Positions 7,647 to 60,485 of a stretch of DNA of 64,000 nt are shown here, in pieces. A program made the translations under genes and the position numbers. The stretch lies in the IMG/VR virus record IMGVR_UViG_3300012984_000011. One strand, 5' to 3'. Source of the stretch: an uncultured virus (IMG/VR IMGVR_UViG_3300012984_000011) (lineage: Duplodnaviria > Heunggongvirae > Uroviricota > Caudoviricetes). The first letter of the stretch is position 1. Each line of letters begins with the position of its first letter. A model generated the notes under the pieces. It saw only the letters and a program-made list of their open reading frames with translations. It did no database searches and had not been told where the DNA came from.

Positions 7647-7823
7647 ATGACCCCTGGCCACCAACTCTGGATTGAACTAAACTACGGCAAATACGTCCAA
7701 CCGGACGGCCCCAATCCTTTCGATTGGTGGCCAGAACTGCCCGAAAAGCGGCGTCAACAGTATGAAGAGGCCGCTTTGGTGATGATGGCCGAGGGGGCCA
7801 AGAAAGCCAAATGTCCTACCTGA
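7647..7823 (+). CDS. small hypothetical protein (58 aa)
   Basis: not in the track; GGTGTA at 7633-7638, 8 nt before the ATG; MTPGHQLWIELNYGKY... Confidence 0.6.
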   Translation: MTPGHQLWIELNYGKYVQPDGPNPFDWWPELPEKRRQQYEEAALVMMAEGAKKAKCPT

Positions 7824-8329
7824 TCCCACTCTCCAAAGCTCCGCCAGAATATGGAGCTCCTCGAACCGTTATTGAGCGTGATTCGGAGACGCTGGTTTTG
7901 GAGATCCCTCGACACTTGATCGATAGCTTCGAAAAAGGCTTTTTGGTGATAGAACCCTATAGGCCTAACTTCCGGAAGAGGTTTAGACCCGAGCCTAGCT
8001 ATCAATTCAGCATCGCATTAGACGCTTCCTCTAGTTATTGGTACAAGCGTCGATTGGTGGATAGCCCACACCCTCGACAAGGGCAAACATTGCATCATAC
8101 GAGTCTCAAGAAGCTGAGTCAAATGCAGACCGATAGCTTTGTATTGGTGCAGATCGAATCAGCTTGGAAACTCTGGCGAGTGGACCCTCACGTCAACCCC
8201 TCAGCAGTCAAGCAACAGATAGAGAAGACCGAGAAGCGGGTTCGCCTAAGGGAAGCCAAAGAACAGAAGCGCCTAGCTTCCAAACCGTCTATTTTCAAGC
8301 AACTGCTGGACCGTTTCTTGGACGACTGA
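7811..8329 (+). CDS. hypothetical protein with C-terminal tag-like motif (PSIFKQLLD)
   Basis: 172-aa ORF. Confidence 0.65.
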   Translation: MSYLIPLSKAPPEYGAPRTVIERDSETLVLEIPRHLIDSFEKGFLVIEPYRPNFRKRFRPEPSYQFSIALDASSSYWYKRRLVDSPHPRQGQTLHHTSLKKLSQMQTDSFVLVQIESAWKLWRVDPHVNPSAVKQQIEKTEKRVRLREAKEQKRLASKPSIFKQLLDRFLDD

Positions 8330-8718
8330 TGCCCCACGAAGAAGAACGGATCAGGGTATTGGAAGCCCAGGTGTCGGAGTTGACCGACAGTGTCACTAGG
8401 CTGACGGCCGCCTTTCTGAGCCTGACGGACCATTTGGCTCAGATCCATCAAGAGGGGTCCTACCCCTCTTTCACCAATATGCAGGTTAGTGCTACCGCAA
8501 TAGCTGTTAGCTTTGGCCGAGTCGTACCTATCTACAGTCCAACCTCCCCTCTCAGACCGTTGAGCTGCGATAACTCTAGAGGGATGTGGATGCCATTCGT
8601 GCCTCCCCCACAACTACAGGTCTCAAGATTGGTTCCAATCGCCGGACCAACAACTGAGCCTAGGTCTGCTTGGGATCATCTGACGGAAGACCCTATCGGT
8701 CAGCCAACCACCAGATAA
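8329..8718 (+). CDS. hypothetical coiled-coil protein with C-terminal tag (RSAWDHLTED)
   Basis: TGATG coupling at 8327-8331. Confidence 0.65.
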   Translation: MPHEEERIRVLEAQVSELTDSVTRLTAAFLSLTDHLAQIHQEGSYPSFTNMQVSATAIAVSFGRVVPIYSPTSPLRPLSCDNSRGMWMPFVPPPQLQVSRLVPIAGPTTEPRSAWDHLTEDPIGQPTTR

Positions 8719-9203
8719 CTGGTGTCTTCCCAAAGCAGTTGACGCCCGTCACTACACACATAGACGGCTCGATCATAGTCGATCGATACGATTTGGTTCT
8801 GATTTCGAATTAGGTCGTAGCGATCCACAACCCTGACATCTCCCTTGTAGATCACGCATGTCCCTACCGATAGGGTAGGCTTTGGAGCGTGGTAGTGGAC
8901 CCACCAGCTCAACATGCACGACAGTACTCTCTTCCTAGTGTGGTAAATGTCGGCATTGACCAAGCCCACGATCAGGTTTTCGTCAACATAGAAATTGTGT
9001 CTAGCCAACAGGACCCCAATCTCGAAAGCGTCTTCCAGCTTAGAGCTGAGAATGTGGGCCAAACTATCGAGGAATTGCTCTTTTTCACTAACATCAACGC
9101 AATCCTTCAGGGAACGCCACACCTCTGCCGCCACCTCAGTCGATACCTCTAGGCTAAAGTAAGTGGGCCGCTCAACCTTCTCTTGTGTCACTTGATCTTC
9201 CAA
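8700..9203 (-). CDS. hypothetical protein
   Basis: 167-aa ORF. Confidence 0.6.
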   Translation of the reverse strand: MEDQVTQEKVERPTYFSLEVSTEVAAEVWRSLKDCVDVSEKEQFLDSLAHILSSKLEDAFEIGVLLARHNFYVDENLIVGLVNADIYHTRKRVLSCMLSWWVHYHAPKPTLSVGTCVIYKGDVRVVDRYDLIRNQNQIVSIDYDRAVYVCSDGRQLLWEDTSYLVVG

Positions 9204-9673
9204 TCATTGTCCAACAAGTGGTCGGCCGAACGCTTGGATTTGGGAGGTTCGGGAGGTTCTTTTACCTTCACTTCTGGATTCGAAGGGTTGGTCTGCAGAC
9301 TATGTTGATCCGTACCCAACTCAGCCGCCAACATAGTCTGGATGGCGTCATGAATTTCTTGTCCAGTCCGCACTGCAAATTGTGTCGGAACGGTAGAGTA
9401 CTGTAGTCGCCATTGTTCTTGAGCTTCCGAAGGAGCTCTGACATCTGCTCGGGCCCGTCTGAGACGCATCTGGGTGAATGTATTGGCGTCTAACACCGCT
9501 CTTGGAAAGACGATACGTAGGTCGCTGTAGTGCTTCCGACCCACATTCTTAGGGACCTTCACCTTGGGTCCAAAGAAGCCGTGGAAGAACAGTCTGTCTG
9601 CAGCATAGAAGCAAGATACCGCCCCCAACGCCAGAACAACATAGATGATCAGCAGAGGATGGATGTGGGACAT
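9188..9673 (-). CDS. N-terminal TM protein with C-terminal tag (RSADHLLD)
   Basis: hydrophobic N-terminus; Pro-rich linker before the motif. Confidence 0.65.
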   Translation of the reverse strand: MSHIHPLLIIYVVLALGAVSCFYAADRLFFHGFFGPKVKVPKNVGRKHYSDLRIVFPRAVLDANTFTQMRLRRARADVRAPSEAQEQWRLQYSTVPTQFAVRTGQEIHDAIQTMLAAELGTDQHSLQTNPSNPEVKVKEPPEPPKSKRSADHLLDNDWKIK

Positions 9674-9783
9674 TTTTACACCTATACTTTAATCAAACCA
9701 GCGAGTGGATCCAAGCCTTAAAGTACACCAAGATTGGGGATGTCGTTTTGCTCTTGTGAAAGGCCAGCTATTGGAGGTTCCCC

Positions 9784-10305
9784 ATGACATGCATCGCTGC
9801 GATTGTTGAGCCTGGCCGAGTTTGGATGGGTGGGGATTCGGCAGTGACGATTGAGGATGCGGTTCTTACTCAAGCGGAGCCCAAGGTGTTTAGATGTGGA
9901 CCCCTCATTGTGGGTTGTTGCGGCACCACCCCATGGGAGTCGATGTGGCAACGTCTAGAGCTAGACCCTCCTGGGACGGATCTAAATAGATGGGTCAAGT
10001 CCTATTTGACCGATGTCCTCAAGGCTGCCATTGAAAAATCTGTACCTAAGGAAGATGTGGGTGAGGTGGCTTGCTTGATCGGCATAGGCGGAACCCTCTA
10101 CTTGGCTGAGGGGGACGGGATCCCTTGGCGGATCAGGAACAACTATTACGCTATTGGGACGGCCGACGCAGCCAATGGCTCGTTATTCGAATCAGAGAAG
10201 CGGAAAGGGTATTCGTCCCCCAGGAAACGCATCCTCAGCGCCTTGAAAGCGGCAGAGCACCATACCAATTGTGTCAGAGCCCCTTTCCACGTCATCCACA
10301 CCTGA
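9784..10305 (+). CDS. HslV/proteasome-like Ntn-hydrolase
   Basis: N-terminal Thr (MTCIAA), GGDSA, PKVF, YYAIGT; GGAGG RBS. Confidence 0.75.
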   Translation: MTCIAAIVEPGRVWMGGDSAVTIEDAVLTQAEPKVFRCGPLIVGCCGTTPWESMWQRLELDPPGTDLNRWVKSYLTDVLKAAIEKSVPKEDVGEVACLIGIGGTLYLAEGDGIPWRIRNNYYAIGTADAANGSLFESEKRKGYSSPRKRILSALKAAEHHTNCVRAPFHVIHT

Positions 10306-13541: not shown

Positions 13542-13793
13542 TCAGATAAACGGTTCGTCCAACCGCTGGGCAAAGGTTGGAATGTGGATGGTATTTTGCT
13601 TCACCTGAGGACCTTCGATCAAGAAGGTACAATCCGACACACCCAGGTAGGTGGAGATGTCCTGCATCTCCCGCAGCGCTTGCTCCCACGTATAGGGGCC
13701 ATCTCTTCTACTCATGCCGAAAACGTTGTAGCAAACGTAGACGTTTTCCATTGGGTCCCGCTCTCCTATGAGTTGCTCCAAAACGGCATTCAT
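13542..13793 (-). CDS. hypothetical protein with tag-like end (PTFAQRLDE)
   Basis: 83-aa coupled ORF. Confidence 0.6.
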   Translation of the reverse strand: MNAVLEQLIGERDPMENVYVCYNVFGMSRRDGPYTWEQALREMQDISTYLGVSDCTFLIEGPQVKQNTIHIPTFAQRLDEPFI

Positions 13794-15801: not shown

Positions 15802-18800
15802 ATGAGACTCGAAGCGATTGCCAGTGGAGGGTACTTCCCCACTCCTCCACACATTATCTCACACATCGCCCGTCTGTTGGATACGGCTGATCATGCGGGG
15901 TATGTCCTCATGGATCCGTGTGCGGGTGAGGGTAGGGCGATTGCTGATTTGGCCCGTCAGGCGTTCGCTGGATCGTTGTCGACGCTCTCCGTCTACACGT
16001 GCGAACTAGAGAAGACCCGCTTCCAAACGCTAGAGCAAACGATCAAAGATCTGCGATGTCACTGGCGTAGCCCGATGGCCACCCTACAGGGGGATGCGTT
16101 CCAGATTGCGTTTGAGAAGCCTGTTGGAGACCTGCTGTATCTGAATCCGCCCTATGATCTGGACCCAGTCCATGGCCGACTCGAACAACGGTTCCTAGAC
16201 CGTTTCCAAAGCGCCTTGGTGGTGGGTGGGGTGTTGGTATTCGTTGTGCCGTTCTATGCCCTCAAGGCATCGGCCAAGACGCTTGCCACCCAATTCACCG
16301 ACCTGGTCTGCTTCCGCTTCCCTGATGAGGACTTCGATGCCTACAAGCAAGTGGTACTGTTTGGGGTCAAGGGCGAGACACAGCTGCGCTCAGATCCCAA
16401 GCTTTTGCGCAAAGTAGAGACGTGGGCGGAATCGGTTGAGTTGATGCCAGTGTTGGGGGAGCCAACCAAAGTTCTCTTCACCCCTCCACAGACGGGCGGC
16501 TATCATGTGATCGACTGGCGGATGCGAGATTTTGATCGCCTGGGATTGATGCGGAAGATCCGTCCGTGGCAGCAAAGCGCTAGGGTGGGAGGCCTTAGTG
16601 CGGTCCCCCATATCATGCCCACACTGCCCCTATCGGAGCTGATGTTCCGCACCTATCAGCTCGCTACTCCTCCACGGCCCGCCCACATTGCAGCCGGCAT
16701 TGCTAGCGGACTGTTCAATGGCAGGCGAGTTGCCCCCATCACACAGGGGCTGCCGGACCTATTGGTCAAGGGGGTGTTCGACCGAGACTTTGTGACGGTT
16801 GAGGAAAAAACCAACAAATCAGGGGAAGTTACCTCTGTGACACAGGTTCAGCAACCCAAGTTGGTGACCACAATCTTGGATCTGAAGACTAAGAAGTACA
16901 CAACTCTAACCAAGCTAGGTAAGACCAGCTCGCTTGATGTCGAGCAGATGTCGATCGAGGATTTGTTGGAGCACTACGGGCCAAGCTTAATGCAGGTGAT
17001 GCTTCAGCAGTGCCCTGTCTTGTATGACCCCAAGCGGGACGCTGATCGGGTGCAACTCAAGCCCACAGCTCGCCCCCTATTTAGTGCTCAGCAACATACC
17101 GCCAAAGCGTTGATCATGCTGTTGGGGGGTAATCAGTGCAAGAATCGCCGTTTCAAGAATGGTAAGCTGTTGGGGGAAATCGGGTCTGGTAAGACCAGTG
17201 TGGCGTTGGCCGTTAGTCAAACGATCGCCCATAGGACCCTTGTGATCTGCCCGCCCCATCTATTGGCCTCATGGCGGAAAGAAACTGCACTAAATCTGCC
17301 TGACGCTGAGGTGAGGGTATTGGCTGATCTCCAAGATTTGGACGATCTGTCGACCGTCCCAGCCGACAAACAGCTGATCGCCATCATGTCTCGTGAGGCG
17401 GCCAAGTTGGGTCATGGCTGGGCTAGTGTGGAGGGTAGTTGTCCCAAATGCGGAGCTCCGCTTCCCAAGGAAGATATCGTCAAGAAGCGGTTGACTTGCC
17501 AACATCAAGGCATCGTGATCAAAGGGCGGCTGGGCTTCGAAGCCGAGAAGCTGGCTGTTCGGTTGATGTCCTACAGTCCTGACAATCATCAAGTCAGGAC
17601 CATGTTGCCCAGTCGACATTCCCAGCGGATCCTGGATCAGCTGCAAAAGGTGGAACCGAAACCTGAGTGGCGGTTCGAATCCGAATGGGTCGAAGCCTTG
17701 TTGCCCAAGGTCTACAGCCGGCTTCTGAAAGACCCCGAAGATGCCAATTTGCTCAAATTGTTTGGCCGGCTGATGCTGGCCGACTACAATCCAGAGCGGA
17801 TTGCCCGCATGGTTCGCCAATTGGCGGCCGATTCGGGGGAGTCTTATGCCCTCTCAGACGCGGCCCGAAGTTTGGTGATGTTGTTGGAGCAAGGTTCAGA
17901 CCTGCAGCTATCGTTTGAGCAAGACGATACGTTCCGAAACGCCAGTTGGGCGTCCCTCTACTCCAGCACCAAACAATCTTGGGGATATACGTGCCGATTG
18001 GGCAAGATCACTTGGGTTGATGGCAAGCTTCAGCTTGATGGGTTGGAACCCAACAGTTTGACATTGGCGGAGGCGATTCTCCGAAAGCTGATTGTAGCCG
18101 GTAAGGTATCGTCTTTGCCTGCTTGCGAGGGACGGCTCTATCAGGCGGTTCCTGAGCCTCGTCGAGTGGCGTTGGCCAACCATTTGGCCAAGTATCGGCC
18201 CAATTTCTTTGACCTGTTGTTACTTGACGAAAGTCACGAATACAGCTCTGATTCGTCCGCACAAGGTATGGCGGCGCACCGTCTAACCGGTCTAGGGATC
18301 CCTTCGATTCTCATGACCGGCAGTGCGATGAACGGTTACGCCACATCGCTCTACCAAAACATGTGGGCCGTTTCGCCTAGCTTCCGTCAGGAGTTTGGCC
18401 GAGCAGATAAGCAACGGTTCGTTGACCGATATGGCTACCGTAAGCGAGTCCTCTCTGACAAGGATCGTGAGACAGGTGAGGTGGTGGCGTTTGGGGCAGT
18501 ATCGGACCGTGTTCAACGGAATGAACGGACGGCGGGCGATGCTCCTGGCATCCTTCCCTTGTTCCTATTCCGTCACCTGCTGCCTATTGCGGTCACACTC
18601 CACAAGGCCGACCTGGCGATCGATATCCCGCCCTGCAGGGTTGAGAAGCACGCGGTGGAAGCTTCGGCTGAGCTGTTGGGCAGCTACAAGGATCTGCTGT
18701 CAGCACTCAAACAGCAGATCAAGAAGGATCAGTTTCAGCCTGATCTGTCAGGCAAGCTGTTCGGGCAATTGTCTGAACTGCCCAGCTACCTGGATCGCAG

Positions 18801-19476
18801 CTCGGCTGATGTGGGCAACAATGCTGAGGGAATGTACGAGATCCGCTACCCTGAATCAGTTGGGGGAGAGCTGGTGGCGACCGGCAAGCAATTCCCAGCC
18901 GAGATGTTGTCGGCCAAGGAAGAGAAGATGTTGGAGCTCCTCAAAGCCGAGCTGGCTGAGGGTCGAAACGCTATGGTGTTTGGCTGGCACACCAATTTGC
19001 TGCAACGAATCAGCCGCCTGATTGAGCAACATTTGGGCGTCAAGGCTCCCGTCCTGTACGCTGATGCGGTCCCTCCTGGCAAACGACAAGCATGGATCGA
19101 GAAACAGATTGTCAGCAAACAGGCTAGGGTGTTGGTCGCCAACCCCCAGGGGATCAGCACCGGTCTCAACGTTCTGACCTACTTCTCCACTGAGATTTGG
19201 ATGGAGAACCCCCAATGCAGTCCCCACATTTTCCGTCAGGCGGTTGGTCGGGTGGATCGTGTCGGTCAAAAGCTCGACACCAGGATCCATTTCCTTGTCT
19301 ACATGGATTCACTCCAACAACAGCTGTATGATCTGCTGATGCGCAAGGTAGAGGTGGCGGTCTCGACAGATGGTCTCGACAATGAGAGCATGCTGGCGGC
19401 TGCTGGTGTGGGGACTCAGCACTACAGCGGTATGTCGATCGGTCGCCAGCTCTGGGCGTTGATCAATGAGGAATGA
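15802..19476 (+). CDS. DUF6094-type adenine methyltransferase fused to an SF2/SNF2-like helicase (DarB-like architecture)
   Basis: GYFPTP, DPCAGEG, LNPPY; GEIGSGKT, DESH, TGS, QAVGRVDRVGQ. Confidence 0.85.
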   Translation: MRLEAIASGGYFPTPPHIISHIARLLDTADHAGYVLMDPCAGEGRAIADLARQAFAGSLSTLSVYTCELEKTRFQTLEQTIKDLRCHWRSPMATLQGDAFQIAFEKPVGDLLYLNPPYDLDPVHGRLEQRFLDRFQSALVVGGVLVFVVPFYALKASAKTLATQFTDLVCFRFPDEDFDAYKQVVLFGVKGETQLRSDPKLLRKVETWAESVELMPVLGEPTKVLFTPPQTGGYHVIDWRMRDFDRLGLMRKIRPWQQSARVGGLSAVPHIMPTLPLSELMFRTYQLATPPRPAHIAAGIASGLFNGRRVAPITQGLPDLLVKGVFDRDFVTVEEKTNKSGEVTSVTQVQQPKLVTTILDLKTKKYTTLTKLGKTSSLDVEQMSIEDLLEHYGPSLMQVMLQQCPVLYDPKRDADRVQLKPTARPLFSAQQHTAKALIMLLGGNQCKNRRFKNGKLLGEIGSGKTSVALAVSQTIAHRTLVICPPHLLASWRKETALNLPDAEVRVLADLQDLDDLSTVPADKQLIAIMSREAAKLGHGWASVEGSCPKCGAPLPKEDIVKKRLTCQHQGIVIKGRLGFEAEKLAVRLMSYSPDNHQVRTMLPSRHSQRILDQLQKVEPKPEWRFESEWVEALLPKVYSRLLKDPEDANLLKLFGRLMLADYNPERIARMVRQLAADSGESYALSDAARSLVMLLEQGSDLQLSFEQDDTFRNASWASLYSSTKQSWGYTCRLGKITWVDGKLQLDGLEPNSLTLAEAILRKLIVAGKVSSLPACEGRLYQAVPEPRRVALANHLAKYRPNFFDLLLLDESHEYSSDSSAQGMAAHRLTGLGIPSILMTGSAMNGYATSLYQNMWAVSPSFRQEFGRADKQRFVDRYGYRKRVLSDKDRETGEVVAFGAVSDRVQRNERTAGDAPGILPLFLFRHLLPIAVTLHKADLAIDIPPCRVEKHAVEASAELLGSYKDLLSALKQQIKKDQFQPDLSGKLFGQLSELPSYLDRSSADVGNNAEGMYEIRYPESVGGELVATGKQFPAEMLSAKEEKMLELLKAELAEGRNAMVFGWHTNLLQRISRLIEQHLGVKAPVLYADAVPPGKRQAWIEKQIVSKQARVLVANPQGISTGLNVLTYFSTEIWMENPQCSPHIFRQAVGRVDRVGQKLDTRIHFLVYMDSLQQQLYDLLMRKVEVAVSTDGLDNESMLAAAGVGTQHYSGMSIGRQLWALINEE

Positions 19477-20107: not shown

Positions 20108-20277
20108 TGGACAAATATGAGAGACTTAGAGCATTTCAGACCTTAGAAGAGATGTTCGATAGCCTACCTCCTCTAGCTCAAACGCTGTCCAAAATGGTGG
20201 ACCCTATGGGTTTGATCCATCCTGATGAGGAACCAACCACGCACTCTCCGTCCCCAACAGATGATCCGCAAAAGTAG
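20107..20277 (+). CDS. small hypothetical protein
   Basis: TGATG-coupled 56-aa ORF. Confidence 0.45.
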   Translation: MDKYERLRAFQTLEEMFDSLPPLAQTLSKMVDPMGLIHPDEEPTTHSPSPTDDPQK

Positions 20278-20929
20278 GTCTGACCAGTTCTGAGGCTGGT
20301 TCTGTAGGGGTAGCGGGCGTCGGCACAGACGTCAATGGTGGCGACACCTGAATAGGGATTGCATACGAATAATAGGTGACAGTCCGCTGGGATGTCGTCG
20401 CATCTCGATCTTGGCTATATAGCTGATCCAAGTTCCCTAATCGGTCCGCGTATGCCGCACGGATGTTTCCCCATTGGTTGACCCCATCCAGTTGGTTTGG
20501 CACGGTTCTAAAAAACTGCACGAAATCCATGATACGTACCCAATAGACCCCTGGCAGATCGTAGCTAGACTGCTGGAGCAAAGTTGAGGTGGCGTTGCTG
20601 CTAACCAGATCTAGCCAAATGGTCTCGGGATCGTATCTATCGGTTCGAAACATCCAGCCATTTCTGACATCGGTCACGAACTGGTGCGGACGGATGAAAC
20701 CATATCCTAGGAAGATACATTCATCTGTGAAGAGCTGATGCAGCGGGATCTTTAAAGGTTCAGTCTCTATATTGCTGGCCATCACCATGATGACTCGCTT
20801 CTTAGTTAGATGTACCACCTTCCTCAAGGTGCCTGACACCACCCACCAAGACCCCACCAGCCTCTTTGGGCTAGCTCGCAACTGTAGCTCTACCTGTTCG
20901 TCAATCGACAGGTTGGAACGGACCTTCAT
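20204..20929 (-). CDS. paralog-family protein with tag (RPTFADHLL)
   Basis: N-terminus PKRLVGSWWVV weakly similar to the next two genes. Confidence 0.7.
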   Translation of the reverse strand: MKVRSNLSIDEQVELQLRASPKRLVGSWWVVSGTLRKVVHLTKKRVIMVMASNIETEPLKIPLHQLFTDECIFLGYGFIRPHQFVTDVRNGWMFRTDRYDPETIWLDLVSSNATSTLLQQSSYDLPGVYWVRIMDFVQFFRTVPNQLDGVNQWGNIRAAYADRLGNLDQLYSQDRDATTSQRTVTYYSYAIPIQVSPPLTSVPTPATPTEPASELVRPTFADHLLGTESAWLVPHQDGSNP

Positions 20930-20966: not shown

Positions 20967-21572
20967 ATGCCCCTGAGTGAAGAGCAACGTCACCAATTCT
21001 TGAACACTCCTCAGACATTGGTCGATACCTATTGGGTGGTCAATGTGGGCGACGGCCTGAATACCGAATATGTCAAGATAGTGGACGTTAGAGAGCGTCG
21101 AGCTCATGTGGTGTTGACGGCTGTCCATTGGAATTTTCGTACTGAGCCTACTCATTGGTGGGTTGTAGTCGAATCGATCGTATGGGGTGGTGTCTATATA
21201 GGAACCCATCAGGAAGCAGGATGGGTTGTTTCAGGCGCTATGGTCACTACTATAGTAGCTACTGAGGATGAACTTCGACGAACCTGGCAGATCGAAGGTG
21301 TCCACGGAAATTCAGTATGGTTTAGAGACAAACCATCTGGTAGAGACTATTTGTTGGGCGCAAATTGTCGAACGCATCTATTTCTGACGACATATAGGCC
21401 GGCTACTAGAGAGGAACACCTCGCTTACCGAGAGCACCTAAACCAATTTTTGGCACGGCCCTTGCCCTCTCCAGATTCAGGACCAATCCCTCCAGAAAGC
21501 CTTGAACCATCATCACCCATCTCACGAATATCTGCATGGGATTTGCTGAAGGAACCCCATGCCACTGAATGA
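20967..21572 (+). CDS. paralog-family protein with tag (RISAWDLLKE)
   Basis: MPLSEEQ...PQTLVDTYW; start reassigned using the motif. Confidence 0.75.
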   Translation: MPLSEEQRHQFLNTPQTLVDTYWVVNVGDGLNTEYVKIVDVRERRAHVVLTAVHWNFRTEPTHWWVVVESIVWGGVYIGTHQEAGWVVSGAMVTTIVATEDELRRTWQIEGVHGNSVWFRDKPSGRDYLLGANCRTHLFLTTYRPATREEHLAYREHLNQFLARPLPSPDSGPIPPESLEPSSPISRISAWDLLKEPHATE

Positions 21573-22149
21573 ACGTCTTCAAGGCTTCTCGGATGACCCA
21601 CAAACGTTGGTGGATACGATTTGGGCCATGTTGAGGCAAAATCAGGCTGCATTTCTGTGGGATAATGTCCAGATATTGGATGTCCGAGAACGTGAGGTGC
21701 ATGTCATTCGTTACGAGGCACTGGAACCGCAGTCCCGTCATCCCCCCAATCATTGGTGGGAGCCAATTGAAGCTTTGTTGTATGGTGCCAAGTATTTGGG
21801 TACTTTTGAAGAAATGGCTTGGTTGAGACCTAGAATGCCTGTCGTGCGGAGGGTGCCGTCAGAAGACCCCTCCCTCAATGGCGTGTGGAGAATCAACTTT
21901 GTCGCAATCGGCAGTATCAGTCTAGAGTCCAGACAACGACAAGGCGTTGAGCAAATGTCGGTAGATCGACCGCCAATCTCTGAATTCTTGCAAACTTACC
22001 GCCGTGCCACTCCTGAAGAACTGTTGGAAGAACAACAGTTTGAAGTAGCGGTGGCAGATCAACCTGAAGTCGCACCTGAGGCACAAACAGAAACGCCCTC
22101 ACGGACATCCCTCTGGCAATTAATCGCTCCTGAGACTCCAATCCCATGA
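21559..22149 (+). CDS. paralog-family protein with tag (RTSLWQLI)
   Basis: MPLNE...PQTLVDTIW, clearly paralogous to 20967. Confidence 0.75.
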   Translation: MPLNERLQGFSDDPQTLVDTIWAMLRQNQAAFLWDNVQILDVREREVHVIRYEALEPQSRHPPNHWWEPIEALLYGAKYLGTFEEMAWLRPRMPVVRRVPSEDPSLNGVWRINFVAIGSISLESRQRQGVEQMSVDRPPISEFLQTYRRATPEELLEEQQFEVAVADQPEVAPEAQTETPSRTSLWQLIAPETPIP

Positions 22150-22370
22150 AGAACGATATGGAGGACCGACGTCGCCTACGTGGCCAGTACGCCCCCAAAC
22201 CAGGCGTGTGCCGCCTCTGTAGCGGAAAAGTGGTGGCCACGATAGGGATCCGGCATGGCCCGCTAGGTCCCAAATATGGAGGGCCCCCACAACAGCACCA
22301 CATCCTTGGCTGGCATTGTGAATCCTGCCAGTTGGTGTATCGACAACGCCCAGCGGACCTGGAGATCTGA
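22146..22370 (+). CDS. Zn-ribbon protein
   Basis: CRLC...CESC. Confidence 0.65.
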   Translation: MKNDMEDRRRLRGQYAPKPGVCRLCSGKVVATIGIRHGPLGPKYGGPPQQHHILGWHCESCQLVYRQRPADLEI

Positions 22371-22996
22371 TGAGTATTTTTACCGATCTGGATGAATTGG
22401 CCAAATTCCGTATGGAACGCTCAACCGAGCTTGAAGCTAGGTGCCGACCACAGGTGGAAGCGTTGCTGCAAGAAGTAGTGGTCAGGATGGGGGTCCCTCT
22501 TGAGAATGTGGAGGGAAACGGATTCCACATAGTCAATAATGGGTGTCAGATTAGGTTTCGGATAACGGTCCAAAATTCCTCTGATGAAAGGGAGGTGGGG
22601 GTGTTTCTGGGTGATGATGGTATGTGGCGTTATCAGTTCAGAGATGGGGGTAGGCTGTTCCAAAGGCCCGTCGATGACCCCTCATTATTGGTCCAGTACT
22701 TTGAAATGGCGTTGAGACGAAGGATCCGTAACCGTAACCCGATCCTCACACATGGCTGGACCGATCCGTCGCTCGCTGTTGAGGAGCGTCTTCGAGACGA
22801 CCTTATGCAGGCGTTTATCCAACATGTGGGCGGTAGCCCTATCCCTATGGATGACCACAGGAATGACTCTATGGCGACGGATGCTGACGACGAAGCATAC
22901 CCTGTTGCCCCCACTAGGGCGGTCGTACCGGCCGCTCCCTCGGCACCAATCGACCGTCCAACCCTCTGGCAACACCTAGGATCTGATCCGGTGTAA
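22370..22996 (+). CDS. hypothetical protein with tag (RPTLWQHLG)
   Basis: 208-aa ORF. Confidence 0.7.
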   Translation: MSIFTDLDELAKFRMERSTELEARCRPQVEALLQEVVVRMGVPLENVEGNGFHIVNNGCQIRFRITVQNSSDEREVGVFLGDDGMWRYQFRDGGRLFQRPVDDPSLLVQYFEMALRRRIRNRNPILTHGWTDPSLAVEERLRDDLMQAFIQHVGGSPIPMDDHRNDSMATDADDEAYPVAPTRAVVPAAPSAPIDRPTLWQHLGSDPV

Positions 22997-23004
22997 GGAT
23001 CCAG

Positions 23005-23730
23005 ATGGCATACGAAAAACTCAAACATGTGATCCGAACCCTCAACCCTGCCTCCTATGTGAGGGTTTTCGACGAAGTGGCGTTGGTCAAGCATCTGGAT
23101 GAGACCCTCAAGATGAGTAACAACCCCTTCAGGGTATTTTGCGAACACCCGTTGATGGCTTCAGTCTATCTTGGGGAGTTGACGACAGCCGAATATTTGA
23201 GGGAATCGGCAGAACTGGGCAAGAGAGGGGTCTACAAAGAATCTCTCTCTGAAGATCGTCAACATAACGTCCTTCGCACGGTTGAATTGTCTCAGGTGTT
23301 GGAGCGCTTTTTGACCAGAGATCTTGGTCAAGACGTGTGCTTTCTGGTCATCCCCAATGGCGATATGTTGCTTGCCGATCCGAAGATCCAACTGCTGACC
23401 AGCAAACTTCTGGACCTCAGGGACTGGAACGACAAACAGTGTTTCCAGATGATCTTCATCGGCTTGTCAGAGCTACCGCAGCTTCCCCCACGCCTGCGAG
23501 ATCGTATGGATGTGTTGGATGAACGCGACTCTCAGAAGGAAGATGCGGCCGCCTATCTAAAGCACATCACTGACCGATTCGAAGGAGATTCCTTCCTGCC
23601 AACCCATCTCCTGCAAGCCATCATCCCATACTTCAATGGGATGTCAAAGAGTCAAATTGACCGTTCATTGGCAGACTTTCTCATCACCAAAAGGTATCTG
23701 GAGAAAGAAGACAAGCCGGTCGATTTCTAG
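23005..23730 (+). CDS. hypothetical protein, possibly an inactive AAA-like domain
   Basis: MIFIG..LPQLPPRL...VLD reminiscent of the Ycf46 N-domain; no Walker A. Confidence 0.55.
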   Translation: MAYEKLKHVIRTLNPASYVRVFDEVALVKHLDETLKMSNNPFRVFCEHPLMASVYLGELTTAEYLRESAELGKRGVYKESLSEDRQHNVLRTVELSQVLERFLTRDLGQDVCFLVIPNGDMLLADPKIQLLTSKLLDLRDWNDKQCFQMIFIGLSELPQLPPRLRDRMDVLDERDSQKEDAAAYLKHITDRFEGDSFLPTHLLQAIIPYFNGMSKSQIDRSLADFLITKRYLEKEDKPVDF

Positions 23731-23854: not shown

Positions 23855-24217
23855 TTAGTCCCCATCCTTGATCAGCTGCCAGGCCGATCGACGCTCCACT
23901 GGTTCTAGCGGAGCGCTAGGAGTCAAGCCGTCGTAGGCCAGCATGACATAAGGACCCAGGCTTTCCAACAGCTCCCTGTAGCGGCCAAGGCGAGCCTTTA
24001 GATCTTCACTGACGCCTTCCAACGAATCCTCATGAGTGGTGGAAACCATCACAGTCGGGACGTTTGACAAAGGCCCCACACTGAGCTGAAGGCTTTTGAT
24101 ACAGGCCAACAGCTCATCGTTCACGTAAGCTCGGAAGAGGGGCGATTGAACCACCACATCAGCGTTATGTGCAGAAAGATTCGGCGGGTAGTCGATCTCA
24201 ATCGTCAGTTTGGGCAT
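23855..24217 (-). CDS. hypothetical protein with tag (RRSAWQLIKD)
   Basis: 120-aa ORF. Confidence 0.7.
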   Translation of the reverse strand: MPKLTIEIDYPPNLSAHNADVVVQSPLFRAYVNDELLACIKSLQLSVGPLSNVPTVMVSTTHEDSLEGVSEDLKARLGRYRELLESLGPYVMLAYDGLTPSAPLEPVERRSAWQLIKDGD

Positions 24218-24845
24218 CGGGCGGCCTCGCTTCCAAATCGTTCAATAGCCAGCCTCGGCTGACCAATTCTCTGTCGCAAGCTTGCTTGCAGGCCTCCAAC
24301 GTCTCGAATTTGGGATATTCGAGGCCCGTCAGATGGTCACGGCTAGGCCCCCTGAAGAGGCCGTCCTCTTCCACGATACAGGCCGCCTGAGCACATCCGT
24401 ATTCCTCGACGTCCCACCTGACCCACATCCCCTGTCGGTCCACCGTCCAGGCGTAACAGATTAGGCGGGGGATGGTTCGGATGGCTCCTGCTAGTTCGAT
24501 AGGGCTCAGACTATCCCAATCAAGCGATGGCGGCGGAGACGGGGTGGAAGATCCGTCCTCTGAGTCGATCAGCTGCCATCCAATTTCTATCCATTCAGCA
24601 TCCCAATGGGCCTGCGCTTCATTGAGAGACTCGAACCTTAGGCCATCCTTGTCCCAATAGGACCTAAATAATCCACCGTCCTTGATGATGAGTGGCGGGC
24701 GCTGACCTTCTTCAGCATACTCCCAAACCGAGGCTCTGGTCCATCCCTCTTCTCGCACGATCCAGCTGTATAGCATCATGCGAGGCAACGTTCTCAGGGC
24801 GTGAGTCAGCTCGGTGACCGAAAGTTCAGACCATTTGATCGTCAT
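24198..24845 (-). CDS. hypothetical protein with two tandem ~100-aa domains
   Basis: WSELSVTELTHALRTLPR... / WDSLSPIELAGAIRTIPR... Confidence 0.7.
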   Translation of the reverse strand: MTIKWSELSVTELTHALRTLPRMMLYSWIVREEGWTRASVWEYAEEGQRPPLIIKDGGLFRSYWDKDGLRFESLNEAQAHWDAEWIEIGWQLIDSEDGSSTPSPPPSLDWDSLSPIELAGAIRTIPRLICYAWTVDRQGMWVRWDVEEYGCAQAACIVEEDGLFRGPSRDHLTGLEYPKFETLEACKQACDRELVSRGWLLNDLEARPPDAQTDD

Positions 24846-26200
24846 GGGAGACGGATCATAACAGCCGATTGGACCTTTTTCAACTCCGCCACATGCATCG
24901 AATGGACGAACTCTGGTACCAACCAAAGGACGTATTCTGGGTTCATTCCGAGAGCGATCTTCCCCGGTACTGGTTTGGGGTCATCCCTTCGGGTGACGAC
25001 AAACCACTTGTGTGAACCCTCCATGTCTCGGAATCCTTCAGTATTGATCCAGCATTTGCCAGTAATGCCAGGCTGAAGCTTGATTCGGTTAACGTAACAG
25101 TGAGGCTTTGGATTTGTGACAGCCTGAATGTGTAGGATGTTGTCCAAGCTGCGTTGAGAGATCGGCTTCCCACCCTCAATCTGGATCTGGCCGCCCAGAT
25201 GGACCATCCGTCCTTTTTCGTCATGGTGGTTGACCGAGCAGAAAATCAGGTGATTGCCACGGATCCCCACCATAGGCCATTTGGTGAAGATAGGGGCGTA
25301 ATCCCGCCAATCGTAAAATTCCCCATTCTCGTCCTGCTGACGATCTAACTCGATCGGACCGTTGACCAAGAGGTCCAAAAGCTTGGTTTGACCTAGAAAG
25401 ACGTCGTATTCGTCGGGAGCTAACACCTGCCCCTTCTTTTTGACGATACTGACAGATGATATGTTGTCGCAGGCTTTGGCTAGAGATGCTTGATAATCCG
25501 GCTGCTGATCAATGGCCAGCAGCGTATACTCAACAGGAGCTGAATCGATGATGGGCATTTCCTCAACCGGTAATGGGCCATCATCGATCGGTTCGATGAC
25601 CAGATGAGAATCTTTAGGGTCAGGCAACGCCAGGCTCAACTGCTCTGTCGGTTGGACCGCCTTCCGCTGATAGTTGATCCGAACTCGGCTCCCATAGTGC
25701 CGATTGATCGGTTCGAACGCCTCTTTGAACCTCGACATGTAGACACTATGATCGGGCTTCTTACCTACATAGATCGTGTACTGTTCCGCCCAACTAGCTA
25801 GCAGCTTGTGGACACGTGTCAGATTGAGCTCATCAGGGGGCTGTCCGTACCACTCAAAGAAGCTCGCCAGAGTATCTAGGAACCACTCACTCCCACAAGA
25901 AGGGGCTTTGGATTTGGGCGTCGGAGGGTCATCGCCTGCCACCAAACCCAGCAAGATCCCTGTGCTGGCTTCCTTTTGGAGCTCGTTGAATAGCAACCAA
26001 TCGGGCCTTTCCAGCATCGTATCCCGAACCAATTTCTTGATCCGTAGCTTGGCCACGCCTTTGAGGGACGCCTTCTGAAAAGCACGCTCCAAACTGCTCA
26101 CCATCCAAGGATGGATCGAATAGGTTGGGTTTGCTAGCTGGTAGGCTTCCAGCAGGGAAACGAAGGTCAATTGAGCGTATTGGGAGACGTTATGAGTCAT
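24842..26200 (-). CDS. hypothetical protein
   Basis: 452-aa ORF, GGTGTA 10 nt upstream. Confidence 0.75.
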   Translation of the reverse strand: MTHNVSQYAQLTFVSLLEAYQLANPTYSIHPWMVSSLERAFQKASLKGVAKLRIKKLVRDTMLERPDWLLFNELQKEASTGILLGLVAGDDPPTPKSKAPSCGSEWFLDTLASFFEWYGQPPDELNLTRVHKLLASWAEQYTIYVGKKPDHSVYMSRFKEAFEPINRHYGSRVRINYQRKAVQPTEQLSLALPDPKDSHLVIEPIDDGPLPVEEMPIIDSAPVEYTLLAIDQQPDYQASLAKACDNISSVSIVKKKGQVLAPDEYDVFLGQTKLLDLLVNGPIELDRQQDENGEFYDWRDYAPIFTKWPMVGIRGNHLIFCSVNHHDEKGRMVHLGGQIQIEGGKPISQRSLDNILHIQAVTNPKPHCYVNRIKLQPGITGKCWINTEGFRDMEGSHKWFVVTRRDDPKPVPGKIALGMNPEYVLWLVPEFVHSMHVAELKKVQSAVMIRLP

Positions 26201-26218
26201 CTCCCCTAATTACACCAA

Positions 26219-27250: not shown

Positions 27251-27273
27251 GACTCTGCAGAAGCACAAATAGG

Positions 27274-27789
27274 TTAGAACCTCATCTCATCAAGGCGTGC
27301 CCAAGCCGACACCCTTTCGATGATGTGGCGTTCCTTGTAGGTGAGGGTAGCTTGTTCCCCATTTGTTTCACTGTGCCTGTTTTTCCTGATAGTGATCAGA
27401 ACCTTTTCAGCATCACCCTCTGCTCTCAACACCAGGTTGGCGTAATAGGTGAGAGCAAGAACTCTTTGCTCTACTGCGATCAGAACAGAACCTTGACCAC
27501 ACCTGGCCACCAGTACTGGAAGAAGACTTGTCCACTCAGCGCTGGGCCCAACCAACCCGTTACAGAACAAGATACCCTCGAAACCACGCTGAAGCGTTCT
27601 TCTCAGGTCTCGTGAAGCCGCATTGAAATCTAGACCCGTGTAGTCCTTCCAGATCTTCTCAACTCCAAGGTCGTTGTCGTATAGATACTGTGCAAACCTA
27701 CTGCATCCAACACCTGACACGGTTGTGATACCCTGAGGGATGCCGTCGGGCAATATGACCTCTAGTTCGGCTATTCCGGTCTTAGGCAT
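27274..27789 (-). CDS. degenerate RecA/RadA-like protein with tag (RVSAWARLDE)
   Basis: KTGIAELEVIL..GIPQG.T.VSG and YYANLVLR...IRKNR, but no Walker A. Confidence 0.55.
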   Translation of the reverse strand: MPKTGIAELEVILPDGIPQGITTVSGVGCSRFAQYLYDNDLGVEKIWKDYTGLDFNAASRDLRRTLQRGFEGILFCNGLVGPSAEWTSLLPVLVARCGQGSVLIAVEQRVLALTYYANLVLRAEGDAEKVLITIRKNRHSETNGEQATLTYKERHIIERVSAWARLDEMRF

Positions 27790-28418: not shown

Positions 28419-28435
28419 GAGTATCGATACACCGC

Positions 28436-29333: not shown

Positions 29334-29352
29334 GAGGGATCAGTACACCAAC

Positions 29353-29392
29353 GAGAAAAGGCCGAACCCCTTGTGAGGTTCGGCCTTTTCTC
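29353..29392 (-). terminator. intrinsic terminator hairpin
   Basis: GAGAAAAGGCCGAACC...GGTTCGGCCTTTTCTC, 16-bp stem after the 29409 gene. Confidence 0.8.
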
Positions 29393-53254: not shown

Positions 53255-53524
53255 TGATTGAACGCTTGACCCAAGGAGAGCAAGTCATCTACGCGGCCGT
53301 CTTTGCCGCTGAGGTGGCTCCTCTATTCAAGCCAGGCGGCGTGCCGCTTCACATCATCGAGGCTGGCACCGAGGACGAATGGCGCAAGCGACAAGCCGTT
53401 AAGTGCGGCCGAGGTGGCGTGGGCCACCATCGAAGCCTTCAGGGAAGCGGGCTCAGGTATTGTCGAAGGCTTTGGCGGAGCCAGCGATGTGATGCGTTTG
53501 TGGCAGATGATGCGAGGTTACTGA
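53254..53524 (+). pseudogene. small gene interrupted by an apparent 1-nt insertion near 53401
   Basis: MIERLTQG...EWRKRQAV continues plausibly as SAAEVAWATIEAFREAG...MMRGY in the +1 frame. Confidence 0.5.
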
Positions 53525-53775
53525 TCGTCCTCCAGGAGGAGTTCCCATTTGGTTGGGAGTTTCTCCTGGAGTTCTCGTCGATCTCTAGACCGCTGGGCTG
53601 TGACGATAGGCTGCATGGCGGCTTGGAGTTGTCTCCGAAACTCAGCCTCTGGATCGTCACCAGCAAAGAAGCCGGGCCATCCAGTTTGCTCCCAGACGAG
53701 GGACTCCAGAGTGGCGTCGTCCAACTTAACCTCTAGCTTGGCCGCTTCTTCTCTGGCGATCGTTAGGGCATTCAT
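53518..53775 (-). CDS. hypothetical protein
   Basis: coupled 85-aa ORF. Confidence 0.65.
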   Translation of the reverse strand: MNALTIAREEAAKLEVKLDDATLESLVWEQTGWPGFFAGDDPEAEFRRQLQAAMQPIVTAQRSRDRRELQEKLPTKWELLLEDDQ

Positions 53776-55375: not shown

Positions 55376-55630
55376 ATGCAACACTTGACGGTCGAATCCT
55401 GGTTGGAACAATACTGCCGATGGCAACGGCTAGACTGGCAAAAGCTAAGCTCACCAGAGAAGAGCCAGGTGCTGAGGCAAGTTCCTTGCACGTTGCGTTG
55501 CTGGCGTATTGGGGATGCGGTAGACGGTCAGCTGGGCAAGCCTTGCGTCGAATGCGGCTTCCCCATCAAAGATCTGTTGCTCAAAGATCCTGAGACCGTC
55601 TGGGCTTTGCTGGATAGTCCGATCGTTTGA
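55376..55630 (+). CDS. Zn-finger protein with tag (PETVWALLDS)
   Basis: GGTGTA 9 nt upstream. Confidence 0.65.
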   Translation: MQHLTVESWLEQYCRWQRLDWQKLSSPEKSQVLRQVPCTLRCWRIGDAVDGQLGKPCVECGFPIKDLLLKDPETVWALLDSPIV

Positions 55631-57328: not shown

Positions 57329-57574
57329 TCAAGAATCGTCCATTTCTTCAATTTCAAATGGAATCTCAGTAGGGCGGTTGCCAGGCCATCGATACGCCCT
57401 TTCAACGGGTCTGAGCTGCTCGGAAGGACAAGGCTTCTTGTTAGGATCCTTATGTCCCGTGAAGTTGATCCCGTCAGCTTCTCTCTTGTCCTGCCAATCT
57501 GGGTATTGATCGCAGTATTGGCATTCTTTTTTGCCGTGAAGGATATTCGAGTCACAATGGGGGAAAGGTGCCAT
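57329..57574 (-). CDS. Cys/His-rich hypothetical protein
   Basis: FPHCDSNILH...CQYCD.YPDW; start uncertain. Confidence 0.65.
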   Translation of the reverse strand: MAPFPHCDSNILHGKKECQYCDQYPDWQDKREADGINFTGHKDPNKKPCPSEQLRPVERAYRWPGNRPTEIPFEIEEMDDS

Positions 57575-57833
57575 GTCGTTTGAGTTACCTGAGTTGGGTT
57601 CCATTTGGCTTCATCCTAATGCCCCCAACGTAAAACTTCAAGTATTGGCCATTGAACAGGTGGGGGCGCAGCAACTTGTGTACGTCGATCTAGACTACCA
57701 GGATCTACATCAACGGATCCATCTATCGATTTCCCTCGAAACTCTGCACCAAACCTACATCTGTCCTGCTACCGTGCGGCGGCCAACCCAATGGGAACAC
57801 TTGCTGGCGGATACGAAATTGCAGACATATTGA
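57573..57833 (+). CDS. hypothetical protein with tag (RPTQWEHLLAD)
   Basis: 86-aa ORF. Confidence 0.65.
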   Translation: MSFELPELGSIWLHPNAPNVKLQVLAIEQVGAQQLVYVDLDYQDLHQRIHLSISLETLHQTYICPATVRRPTQWEHLLADTKLQTY

Positions 57834-59177: not shown

Positions 59178-59178
59178 G

Positions 59179-59721
59179 ATGACCCTCTGCATCGGTATTG
59201 AACAAGGTCGACACGTCTACATTGGAGCCGACTCTGCCTCGATTGCCGAGGACAGCTATGATGTGGTGCGTGACCCCAAGGTGTTCCTGAAGAACGGGTG
59301 GGCGGTTGCTCATGCGGGCTATTGGCGACTTGGCGACTTGCTTCAATACCGCTTGCGTCTTCCAAAAGTTCCTGACAATCCGGCTGATATTGTGAAGACG
59401 GTCAAGCTCGATGTGGTGGATGAGCTGAAGAAGATGATTGTTGAGAACGACATCCCAATGATCGAAAAGGATGAGCCGATCGATTGGTTCATCCTTATTG
59501 GAGCCAAGGGTCAGCTCTACCTGATAGATCGCTCACTTCATGTCGAGCGGTCTAAGTGTAAGCATAACGCGATCGGGACAGGGGCTCAGTACGCCCTCGG
59601 GGCCTTGGATGCGTTGGACGATTCAGGACTGACGGCTCACCAACGAATGACCACAGCTTTTGAGATCACAGCCCGTCGCTGTACCGCCATCCGAGGCCCA
59701 TACCCTATCGTCAAAGCATGA
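59179..59721 (+). CDS. HslV/proteasome-like Ntn-hydrolase
   Basis: MTLCIG, GADS, PKVF, AIGTGAQYALGAL. Confidence 0.8.
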   Translation: MTLCIGIEQGRHVYIGADSASIAEDSYDVVRDPKVFLKNGWAVAHAGYWRLGDLLQYRLRLPKVPDNPADIVKTVKLDVVDELKKMIVENDIPMIEKDEPIDWFILIGAKGQLYLIDRSLHVERSKCKHNAIGTGAQYALGALDALDDSGLTAHQRMTTAFEITARRCTAIRGPYPIVKA

Positions 59722-59900
59722 ACAGGCCTGATTACGAGAACGGACGGTGTTTCGGTATCTTTGACCTGCGAGGGCAATCTTGGGTCTTGGATTGCTTTGA
59801 TGAAGTCCGGCTATTCCCAGATCTCAAATCGGCCGAAGACTACTGCACTCTGTGCAAAACCTACAGTTTCGAAGACTACGAGGCCAGGCTCTACAGATGA
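59718..59900 (+). CDS. small hypothetical protein
   Basis: coupled 60-aa ORF. Confidence 0.55.
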   Translation: MNRPDYENGRCFGIFDLRGQSWVLDCFDEVRLFPDLKSAEDYCTLCKTYSFEDYEARLYR

Positions 59901-60148
59901 ACCCCTACTTCTTTATTGCGGCCTTCCTAAGCGGTTTCGTCATCGAAACCGCTTGTGTGTTCTGGGTCCACTTCTCGGAACGTGGTAAAGCTTTGCCGAC
60001 CGCCCTATGCTCAATGGCAGTAGGTTGTGCTCAAGTCCTTGGTATTGGACAGTCGATACAGGATTGGAAAGTCGCCCCAGGCTTCGTACTAGGTTACGGG
60101 GTGGGGACCTACATGGCCGTCTGGTACAAGTCCAGGCCTAAAGCTTGA
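59897..60148 (+). CDS. small multi-TM membrane protein
   Basis: FVLGYGVGTY pattern, three hydrophobic segments. Confidence 0.65.
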   Translation: MNPYFFIAAFLSGFVIETACVFWVHFSERGKALPTALCSMAVGCAQVLGIGQSIQDWKVAPGFVLGYGVGTYMAVWYKSRPKA

Positions 60149-60485
60149 GCCACGCCTCATCGTCCAATTGCTTGATTCGGTGAGGACGATCGATCAGCGT
60201 AATTGGTTCTATAGACACCACATCAAGCTTGAATGCCGTCTGGTCTCCCGTTATGCCAACCACCACATAGGCGTCGTCCGACAGCTCAATGCGAGGTTGT
60301 ATTTGATACTCTTCCAAGGGGAAGGTGGCACGCCTATCAGACCCCGGCGGTAAACCGATGCCCGTCTGCTGCCAGAACAGACGGGCGATATGGAGGGAAA
60401 CCATGATTCGGCTGATCATGCCTGGGTCTGGGTTGACCTCCCTGGCCATCTTGAGGACGGGCTCTAAGATGGTGCCTTCAATCAT
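60138..60485 (-). CDS. hypothetical protein with tag-like end (RPHRIKQLDDE)
   Basis: 115-aa ORF. Confidence 0.6.
   Translation of the reverse strand: MIEGTILEPVLKMAREVNPDPGMISRIMVSLHIARLFWQQTGIGLPPGSDRRATFPLEEYQIQPRIELSDDAYVVVGITGDQTAFKLDVVSIEPITLIDRPHRIKQLDDEAWLKL

Follow-up and report, generated by a model that had tools for sequence, protein, structure and literature searches.

A short C-terminal peptide carried by many unrelated proteins, in genome-specific versions, across a clade of huge phages

Short terminal peptides that serve as a shared address for otherwise different proteins are known from encapsulins, from the internal proteins of phage T4, from the partners of sliding clamps, and from protease adaptors. 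Encapsulin loading peptides and the T4 capsid-targeting sequence address proteins into an HK97-fold shell or scaffold. The E. coli adaptor SspB has a binding domain, a long, flexible, Pro-rich/acidic linker, and a C-terminal peptide of about 10 residues that docks on the zinc-binding domain of ClpX. Proteins of the Chlamydomonas pyrenoid carry a Rubisco-binding motif, W[RK]xx[LIVA], often at the C terminus. In this study, we analyzed a stretch of 64,000 nucleotides (the window) from an uncultured virus of the Caudoviricetes (IMG/VR record IMGVR_UViG_3300012984_000011), in which a preliminary description had noticed a short C-terminal motif, here called the tag, on about 15 mostly unrelated proteins. 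The observation is real and statistically strong, and there are copies beyond those first listed. Judged from sequence, the tag is a clade-wide C-terminal addressing peptide with genome-specific versions, and it has the look of an address that one phage-specific machine would read.

Our codon-based gene call on the window gave 120 genes, mostly small, on both strands and with 93% coverage. Genes are named here by their lower window coordinate. Ten copies with a Trp (W) form the core set and the Phe (F) variants of genes 20204 and 13542 were counted apart; the ten copies that the preliminary description had called clear are all present in the genes named. The pattern [RK]x[ST]xW lies within the last 25 residues of 9 of the 120 proteins, compared with 2 of 17,006 internal positions (log10 p, -9.7), and it ranked first in an unbiased listing of all gapped three-residue patterns at the window's C termini. 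None of 60 controls (random internal windows, or shuffles where proteins are short) matched this enrichment, the best of them reaching a log10 p of -5.2. For the fuller pattern [RK].{0,1}[ST].W..[LI], the count is 9 in 3,600 C-terminal positions, compared with 1 in 16,406 internal ones. In a leave-one-out matrix scan of the window, the top nine matches are all C-terminal, with the tenth core copy scoring 9.6 and the best internal match 11.3. The Trp stands 8 to 15 residues from the end in all ten core copies, and 3 to 13 variable residues (about 60 in one homologue) follow the tag.

The same codon is used in 49 of 132 pairs of identical residues other than Trp and Met, and Arg, Ser, Thr, and Leu are each encoded by several codons; because the codons differ, it is the peptide, rather than the underlying DNA, that is under selection, as the preliminary description had proposed, and a DNA-level element such as a repeat or a promoter within the gene ends is ruled out. 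A membrane-targeting helix is ruled out by reasoning, since the flank of the tag is acidic. That the carriers are mostly unrelated was likewise borne out: genes 20967 and 21559 provide the sole BLAST link among them, profile comparison places 20204 and 27789 in the same family, at least eight independent tagged families remain in the window after such merging, and Pfam has no family for any of the 12 clear copies. A Pro-rich linker, which had been said to precede the tag often, is found in five of the ten core copies (Pro of at least 10% at residues -45 to -15, the median for 89 other proteins being 3%; p, 0.014 by Mann-Whitney test) and is lacking in the other five. Of the weaker copies on the first list, 13542 stands as an F variant and 27789 as a degenerate copy; those of 7811 and 60138 fall outside the top 40 matches of the matrix scan and are unsupported, and that of 9188, with a score of 9.1, is at noise level. 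The end of 15802 is tag-like, but it is an older feature of its helicase family.

The tag extends beyond the window. The window is the reverse complement of about 177,017 to 239,376 in a near-identical IMG/VR record, G001 (309 kb, 65% complete), with which it has 86% of sampled words in common; 75 of its 120 proteins are identical there. G001 is a huge phage with a head protease, an HK97-type capsid protein, a family A polymerase, and several helicases, as well as a full-length ClpX homologue, a Cdc48/p97-like ATPase, and three further AAA ATPases. A matrix made from the window copies only and run on the 468 proteins of G001 found four further strong matches outside the window region (RTSSWQLLLES, RLTAWQQLDSKE, RTSAWDQLTDS, and RKSIWQRLDEL, with the Trp 7 to 10 residues from the end), along with Y and F variants. 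No Pfam family was found for any of the nine further G001 copies, and a blind listing in this genome gave 15 of 468 C termini and 13 of 83,357 internal positions. All tagged genes of G001 lie within 133 to 285 kb, outside the same-strand block of structural and replication genes.

The clade is large, as the G001 capsid protein has 504 relatives in IMG/VR, of which the best 80 are 92 to 100% identical. We took three large members with near-identical capsid proteins whole and repeated the blind pattern listing, and each proved to have its own version on 13 to 40 proteins. In G063 (437 kb), [ST]xW[DE] is found at 39 of 633 C termini and 49 of 114,570 internal positions, with the consensus PPT[AV]W[ED]R[LI]L[EA][DE]D; in G002 (407 kb), [ST]xWxH is found at 13 of 549 C termini and 3 of 106,648 internal positions ([KR]x[ST][VIL]W[DE]H[LIM]); and G061 (407 kb) has [RK]Fx[RK] at 33 of 495 C termini and 66 of 110,436 internal positions (P[ST]RF[DE]R). 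The register of the motif is constant in these three genomes, while the residues at key positions differ from one to the next. Profiles of one version find few copies of another. The window profile has 14 matches in G001, 1 in G002, and none in the 485-kb genome LR745208.1; a joint G001 and G002 profile has 8 in G001, 18 in G002, 2 each in G063, G067, and G056, 1 in G052, and none in the remaining 16 of 22 records, G061 and G005 included; and the G063 profile has 21 in G063, 1 each in G002 and G067, and none in 13 others, among them G001 and G061. Since the versions do not cross-detect, sorting of further clade genomes into tag-positive and tag-negative by profile failed. LR745208.1 (665 genes) shows no enrichment (4 of 16,625 C-terminal and 19 of 130,252 internal positions), and its blind listing returned compositional patterns only; nor is there enrichment in 80 loci around exonuclease homologues (8 of 44,000 C-terminal and 59 of 342,099 internal positions).

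Nearly all carriers are ORFans. Pfam had no family for 49 of the 54 tagged proteins of at least 90 amino acids (aa) that G002, G063, and G061 encode; the other five are DUF1643, DUF6794, a KaiC-like ATPase, a glucosaminidase, and one weak match. BLAST of 27 tagged G063 proteins against G001, G002, and G061 found no homologue. All 27 strict copies of G063 lie within 69 to 305 kb, and only the loose, doubtful matches at 339871, 355109, and 386596 are in or near the block from about 345 kb that holds homologues of G001 structural genes. By BLAST, 106 of the 468 G001 proteins are common to G002, the head being very conserved and gene content highly fluid. Two genes of G002 (348469 to 349239 and 349795 to 350346) have strong copies away from the C terminus, one near the N terminus (MREPKKSVWEHILEEE) and one 87 residues from the end. 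Beside the ClpX gene of G001, genes at 123009 to 123512 and 124388 to 125026 have the Y/F look-alike ends QSVYDQLMDD and DSIFDQIRAK, which are conserved in G002, G061, and G063.

The ten core copies of the window lie on both strands. On the plus strand, an ORFan of 129 aa at 8329 to 8718 carries PRSAWDHLTED (tag at 8647 to 8694; leave-one-out score, 19.7); the 201-aa product of 20967 to 21572 combines a Tudor/SH3-like N-domain and a Pro-rich linker with the tag SRISAWDLLKE (21513 to 21560); its paralog of 196 aa at 21559 to 22149 carries SRTSLWQLIAPE (22090 to 22137); and an ORFan of 208 aa at 22370 to 22996 carries DRPTLWQHLGSD (22943 to 22990; score, 21.2). Also on this strand are two small ORFans, one of 84 aa at 55376 to 55630, not picked by the codon-based call, with PETVWALLDS (55577 to 55624), and one of 86 aa at 57573 to 57833 with RRPTQWEHLLAD (57768 to 57815). 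The minus strand has an ORFan of 120 aa at 23855 to 24217 with ERRSAWQLIKDGD (23858 to 23905), an ORFan of 171 aa at 27274 to 27789 with ERVSAWARLDE (27280 to 27327), a 161-aa protein with a weak zinc-ribbon match at 39910 to 40395 with YRPTIWELLSD (39919 to 39966), and an ORFan of 85 aa at 53518 to 53775 whose clear copy, LPTKWELLLEDDQ (53524 to 53571), was absent from the preliminary description. The G001 ortholog of 27274 is only 65% identical and keeps the tag as ERVSAWSRFDE. The F variants, both on the minus strand, are VRPTFADHLLG, 23 residues from the end of a 241-aa distant paralog of 20967 and 21559 (20204 to 20929), and IPTFAQRLDE on an ORFan of 83 aa (13542 to 13793); the recurrent form RP[STE]Fx[DE][HR]L[LF] comprises these two and three more copies in G001. 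A 209-aa member of the 20967 family at 27789 to 28418 (minus strand) has the degenerate tag RQSRLQILRDGD, for which the G001 ortholog has RQSSYQILQQGD. The DUF6094 methyltransferase-helicase (15802 to 19476, plus strand, 1,224 aa) ends in a tag-like GRQLWALINEE, which we regard as an older element of the helicase family because it aligns with GKHLYDLLSER in LR745208.1.

The 20967 family allowed us to follow one tag over a greater distance. When a profile of 20204, 20967, and 21559 was compared with 1.84 billion representative proteins, 12 distant homologues came up (E values, 1.8e-12 to 9.4e-4), 10 of which end in a W copy of the form [x]xW[DEQKG]x[LI], such as RRPAWDRIDRDED, PRTTAWERLNTDE, and LRPFWQRLTEEDE; the remaining two have Y and F, respectively, in place of W. 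The preliminary description had named loss of the tag from orthologs as evidence that would count against it, and in this family the tag is conserved while the linkers ahead of it vary by insertions and deletions. An AlphaFold2 model of 20967 from a 15-row alignment (mean predicted local distance difference test [pLDDT], 84.5) has a fold over residues 1 to 162, no secondary structure over 163 to 189, and a helix at 190 to 194, AWDLL; confidence in the linker and tag is moderate (pLDDT, 68 to 82). The model supports the earlier suggestion that the tag forms a short helix, here predicted behind an unstructured linker. Fold searches with the model gave middling Tudor/SH3-like barrel matches only (Foldseek best E value, 1.8e-3; VIA best Z, 7.0, with a root-mean-square deviation of 1.8 Å over 56 residues), and SspB is not among the listed matches, which excludes nothing. 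Word-index homology searches with 20967, 23005, and the family alignment returned the window's own proteins or known members only, and viral-contig scans with the 1,224-aa helicase, P0007, and the P0009/P0015 alignment found no match.

Each genome has one version of the tag, which argues for a single receptor per genome. Unrelated, genome-specific carriers share the version of their genome, and the version differs between phages with capsid proteins more than 90% identical, a pattern that descent or self-capping cannot yield and that a single reader per genome, changing with its ligands, can. We consider it likely that the tag is a short linear addressing peptide with one receptor per genome; the genome-specific versions and the failed cross-detection between profiles fit the one receptor that the preliminary description had envisaged. 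Rather than the capsid protein, which G001 and G002 share at 92% identity and which is 83% identical in the tag-free LR745208.1, this receptor is probably a phage protein that evolves faster, and a conserved host hub is less likely to fill the role. The tag would begin with a helix start (Pro/Arg, then Ser/Thr), continue as a two-turn amphipathic helix with the aromatic residue and the Leu/Ile three places on along one face, and end in an acidic tail. A flexible linker of variable length would leash it to many unrelated, fast-evolving accessory proteins, and the one phage receptor of each genome would read the tag and change along with it.

Our preferred candidate for the receptor, at a probability of roughly 0.3, is a putative substrate- or adaptor-docking site of the phage's own AAA+ unfoldase, ClpX-like or Cdc48-like. 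The reader could be either the ClpX homologue, which is full length and has an N-terminal zinc-binding domain, or the neighboring Cdc48-like ATPase, and the tag could be a degron that times the removal of accessory proteins or, alternatively, an SspB-like tether with which a tagged protein passes a bound target to the unfoldase. In G001, ClpX (116077 to 117318) matches Pfam AAA_2 (E value, 2.7e-29) and ClpB_D2-small (5.6e-10) and aligns with solved ClpX over residues 3 to 404 (1.8e-99); its zf-C4_ClpX match (2.5e-5, 24.5 bits) is under the Pfam cutoff of 27 bits. Orthologs are present in G002, G061, and G063. The Cdc48/p97-like ATPase of G001 was recognized with an E value of 1.5e-37. The two genes belong to a conserved block and are found in all four genomes in which we saw tags and not in the tag-free LR745208.1. 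With two HslV-like peptidases added, they make the proteostasis genes of the clade an unusual set. In the window, three tagged genes in a row (20967 to 22996) are followed by the untagged 23005 to 23730, the last gene of the plus-strand run 20967 to 23730 and a stand-alone paralog of the N-terminal domain of the Cdc48-like ATPase (G001 105445 to 107010; 26% identity over 161 columns; pairwise E value, 1e-5). This co-occurrence, the N-domain paralog, and the SspB-like layout of the 20967 family are what make unfoldase docking our first choice. In G061 (280076 to 282376) and G068 (215753 to 218032), the ClpX homologue is one frame of about 780 aa with an intein-like insertion of about 330 aa near Walker A.

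Several findings weigh against unfoldase docking. Only one tag-free genome underlies the co-occurrence, and this genome is at the same time the outgroup (capsid 83%, versus 92%, identical); 53 G063 genes, structural ones included, have the identical presence pattern. ClpX and Cdc48-like genes occur in 13 of 22 clade records, most of them beyond tag classification as their versions escape the profiles. The tag is not at the extreme C terminus, and we take it to be unlike the SspB tail or ssrA-type degrons. Stand-alone Cdc48-like N-domain paralogs were found beside tag clusters only in the window's lineage, so the paralog implies no general link to tags, and the 65% complete G001 yielded no ClpP gene. 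The tag on a glucosaminidase and the tag-like end of the methyltransferase-helicase would suit injected virion proteins just as well. Complex prediction with two copies of the ClpX-like N-domain (residues 1 to 60, with zinc) and a 20967-family tail (165 to 201) scored 0.02 against a mark of 0.32, without controls, and counts neither way. The preliminary description had suggested a degron for the two HslV-like proteases of the window. Both genes are present, at 9784 to 10305 (plus strand; a start at 9784 gives a protein that begins MT, making an N-terminal Thr possible) and 59179 to 59721 (plus strand; beginning MTLCIG), with phrog_1040 matches at E values of 1.9e-6 and 1.2e-12; an HslV-like gene is also found in the tag-free LR745208.1, which weakens a degron read by HslV-like proteins as such. 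A bolder extension of unfoldase docking, which we offer as speculation and think improbable, is that the tagged ORFans are a phage-encoded library of degradation adaptors, each fast-evolving domain binding a different host protein (for example, one of host defense) and each tail leashed to the ClpX-like or Cdc48-like unfoldase.

A cargo-loading signal is nearly as likely as unfoldase docking. The tag would dock on the procapsid scaffold or core (less likely on the capsid protein), and the accessory proteins would be packed into the very large head and enter the host along with the DNA as pre-made effectors. The presence of the tag on many different small proteins suits such a role, as does the glucosaminidase domain of one tagged G061 protein (Pfam E value, 5.8e-8), and the methyltransferase-helicase with its tag-like end has what we take to be the domain make-up of the packaged P1 protein DarB. 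The fast-evolving gene at 4344 to 5570 of G001, between the head protease and capsid genes, has a presence pattern that fits a receptor: its product is 35 to 50% identical between tagged genomes and has no BLAST match in LR745208.1. An AAA+ translocase could take part, and Iyer et al. (2021; PMC7824862) proposed that the BCS1, ClpA, or ClpX of phages moves proteins into heads. Cargo loading is harder to reconcile with the position of the tagged genes, outside the structural and replication block in G001 and, for the strict copies, away from the block of structural homologues in G063, and with the lack of an evident cleavage site that would free the cargo. The capsid identities of 83 to 92% given above, across genomes with different versions or none, weaken direct docking on the capsid protein in particular. 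Alternatively, and with slightly less confidence on our part, the tag may be a docking motif for a host protein, such as host ClpX, chaperones, RNA polymerase, or another hub, with versions that track host differences. In favor of this, no phage receptor was found, the window encodes a J-domain protein, and mimicry of short host motifs is common in eukaryotic viruses. Capsids that are 92 to 100% identical lead one to expect similar hosts with conserved hubs, and yet the aromatic residue and its neighbors change (W/F, A/V versus R, and H/R).

We find it unlikely that the tag is a variant of the sliding-clamp-binding motif and serves to tether its carriers to the DNA-bound beta clamp of the host. 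Clamp motifs do occur at the flexible termini of unrelated proteins, and plasmid homologues of the 1,224-aa helicase have clamp-like ends at the same place, GQINLF and GQLMFDF (at the terminus) in Thermoanaerobacterium and GQPVLF in Thermus. A Peribacillus homologue, with dnaN adjoining the gene pair, ends in ATIFDFLAL, in which TIFDFL has the tag pattern [ST]x-aromatic-[DE]xL. Methyltransferase and helicase, fused in the window (15802 to 19476), are separate neighboring genes on these plasmids, and the Peribacillus plasmid has dnaN and a DUF1643 gene beside the pair; one of the tagged G002 proteins is a DUF1643 protein. The clamp motif QL[SD]LF begins with a Gln that is missing from all ten core tags, and the conserved aromatic-x-x-Leu spacing is helical rather than extended. 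A conserved clamp pocket leaves the genome-specific versions unexplained, the phage polymerase is family A-like, neither G001 (65% complete) nor LR745208.1 gave a match to the clamp families PF00712 and PF02768, and 20 to 40 partners without any DNA-related domain are implausible. Least probable of all, and in our view very improbable, is that the tag has no addressing function and is a remnant of common descent in one expanded family or an intramolecular stabilizing cap. Four window copies do belong to one family, the linker and tag pLDDT of 68 to 82 could mean packing on the domain, and gene 24198 to 24845 (minus strand) has an internally duplicated domain of about 100 aa, both copies of which end in a tag-like GW[QL]L[IN]D, with a Pro-rich linker after the first. 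Against descent or capping stand the window copies, at least eight, without detectable similarity outside the tag and the 27 tagged G063 proteins without a BLAST homologue in the three other genomes, all of which have the G063 version; a concerted change of version across unrelated proteins is impossible by descent or by self-capping of different folds.

Annotation of the window found HU, two papain-like peptidases, the fused 1,224-aa DUF6094 methyltransferase-helicase, an N6/N4 methylase, a J-domain protein, two R2K ATP-grasp proteins, a nucleotidase, CoaE, UDP-glucose dehydrogenase, a Bax-inhibitor-like membrane protein, a tailspike-like protein, an exonuclease, and the two HslV-family peptidase-like genes. 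The J-domain is at the C terminus of a 352-aa protein (37177 to 38235, minus strand) that has an internal tag-like PRSRWAKPLDE after an Arg/Pro-rich stretch, with a noise-level score of 7.7. The segment from 24842 to 35533 is strain variable: identity to the G001 counterpart falls to 88% for 24842, 86% for 26219, and 65% for 27274, and G001 has no match for the genes between 28436 and 35533, among them that of a 658-aa helicase, whereas most other window proteins are identical there. Within it, the tandem paralogs at 30968 to 32014 and 32011 to 33072 (both minus strand; 348 and 353 aa; 39% identical) are made of five or six repeats of about 57 aa, G[KR]RP[TS]..[TS]S..W..H..WL...SL..LCD.L.L, with no Pfam family. 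As a tag receptor, these repeat proteins are unlikely candidates, since G001 has no counterpart of either and yet retains the tags. In the Protein Atlas, 23005 and 24842 had only unnamed or sub-threshold leads. A near-identity search of phage records with the window found no match, and a metagenome scan found none beyond the window's own contig, of 308,895 bases.

No signal on 3 to 6% of a phage's proteins that is retuned in each genome turned up in the literature that we searched. Full-text searches outside subscription journals and supplements gave no account of a tag of this kind, although an earlier one is possible, and a 2026 review (PMC13282480) describes the one well-studied jumbo-phage protein-sorting route as using no terminal signals. 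The tag provides a handle on dozens of ORFans at once and groups them into one pathway, for which it predicts a single receptor per phage. Its W and F versions are natural specificity swaps for experiments, and it could serve as a portable loading or degradation tag in phage engineering. Should the adaptor library prove true, a bacteriophage would in effect carry out targeted protein degradation, and the tail would change along with its receptor in every phage lineage.

The described systems each share part of this arrangement. Like SspB and ClpX degrons, the tagged 20967 family has a layout of domain, linker, and C-terminal peptide, the signal is common to unrelated proteins, and a full-length ClpX with a zinc-binding domain is encoded by the phage itself; unlike them, the tag, [ST]x[WF][DE]x[LI], is acidic rather than basic, is centered on Trp or Phe, is found on 13 to 40 proteins per genome, and has no likeness to the LRVVK tail or the LAA end. 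Encapsulin loading likewise joins unrelated cargo by a flexible linker to a short terminal peptide, and this phage has an HK97-type capsid protein, but the tag consensus is not of the GSL type, the capsid is nearly invariant while the tag varies, and the tagged genes are outside the structural block. The T4 capsid-targeting sequence differs in being N-terminal and cut by the prohead protease, whereas the tag is C-terminal in the ten core copies. The beta-clamp motif (QL[SD]LF or QLxLxL), the PIP box, and the T4 and RB69 tails are also short hydrophobic peptides at flexible termini that bind one hub, and relatives of the window helicase carry such motifs at the same C-terminal place; the tag differs in lacking the leading Gln, in its spacing, in its genome-specific versions, and in having carriers without DNA-related domains, and no clamp gene was found in G001 (65% complete) or LR745208.1. 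The Rubisco-binding motif is eukaryotic, with W+4 instead of W+3 spacing and other flanks, so that the resemblance is in logic only, but in that logic the two agree: a Trp-centered peptide, often C-terminal, brings many unrelated proteins to one abundant partner.

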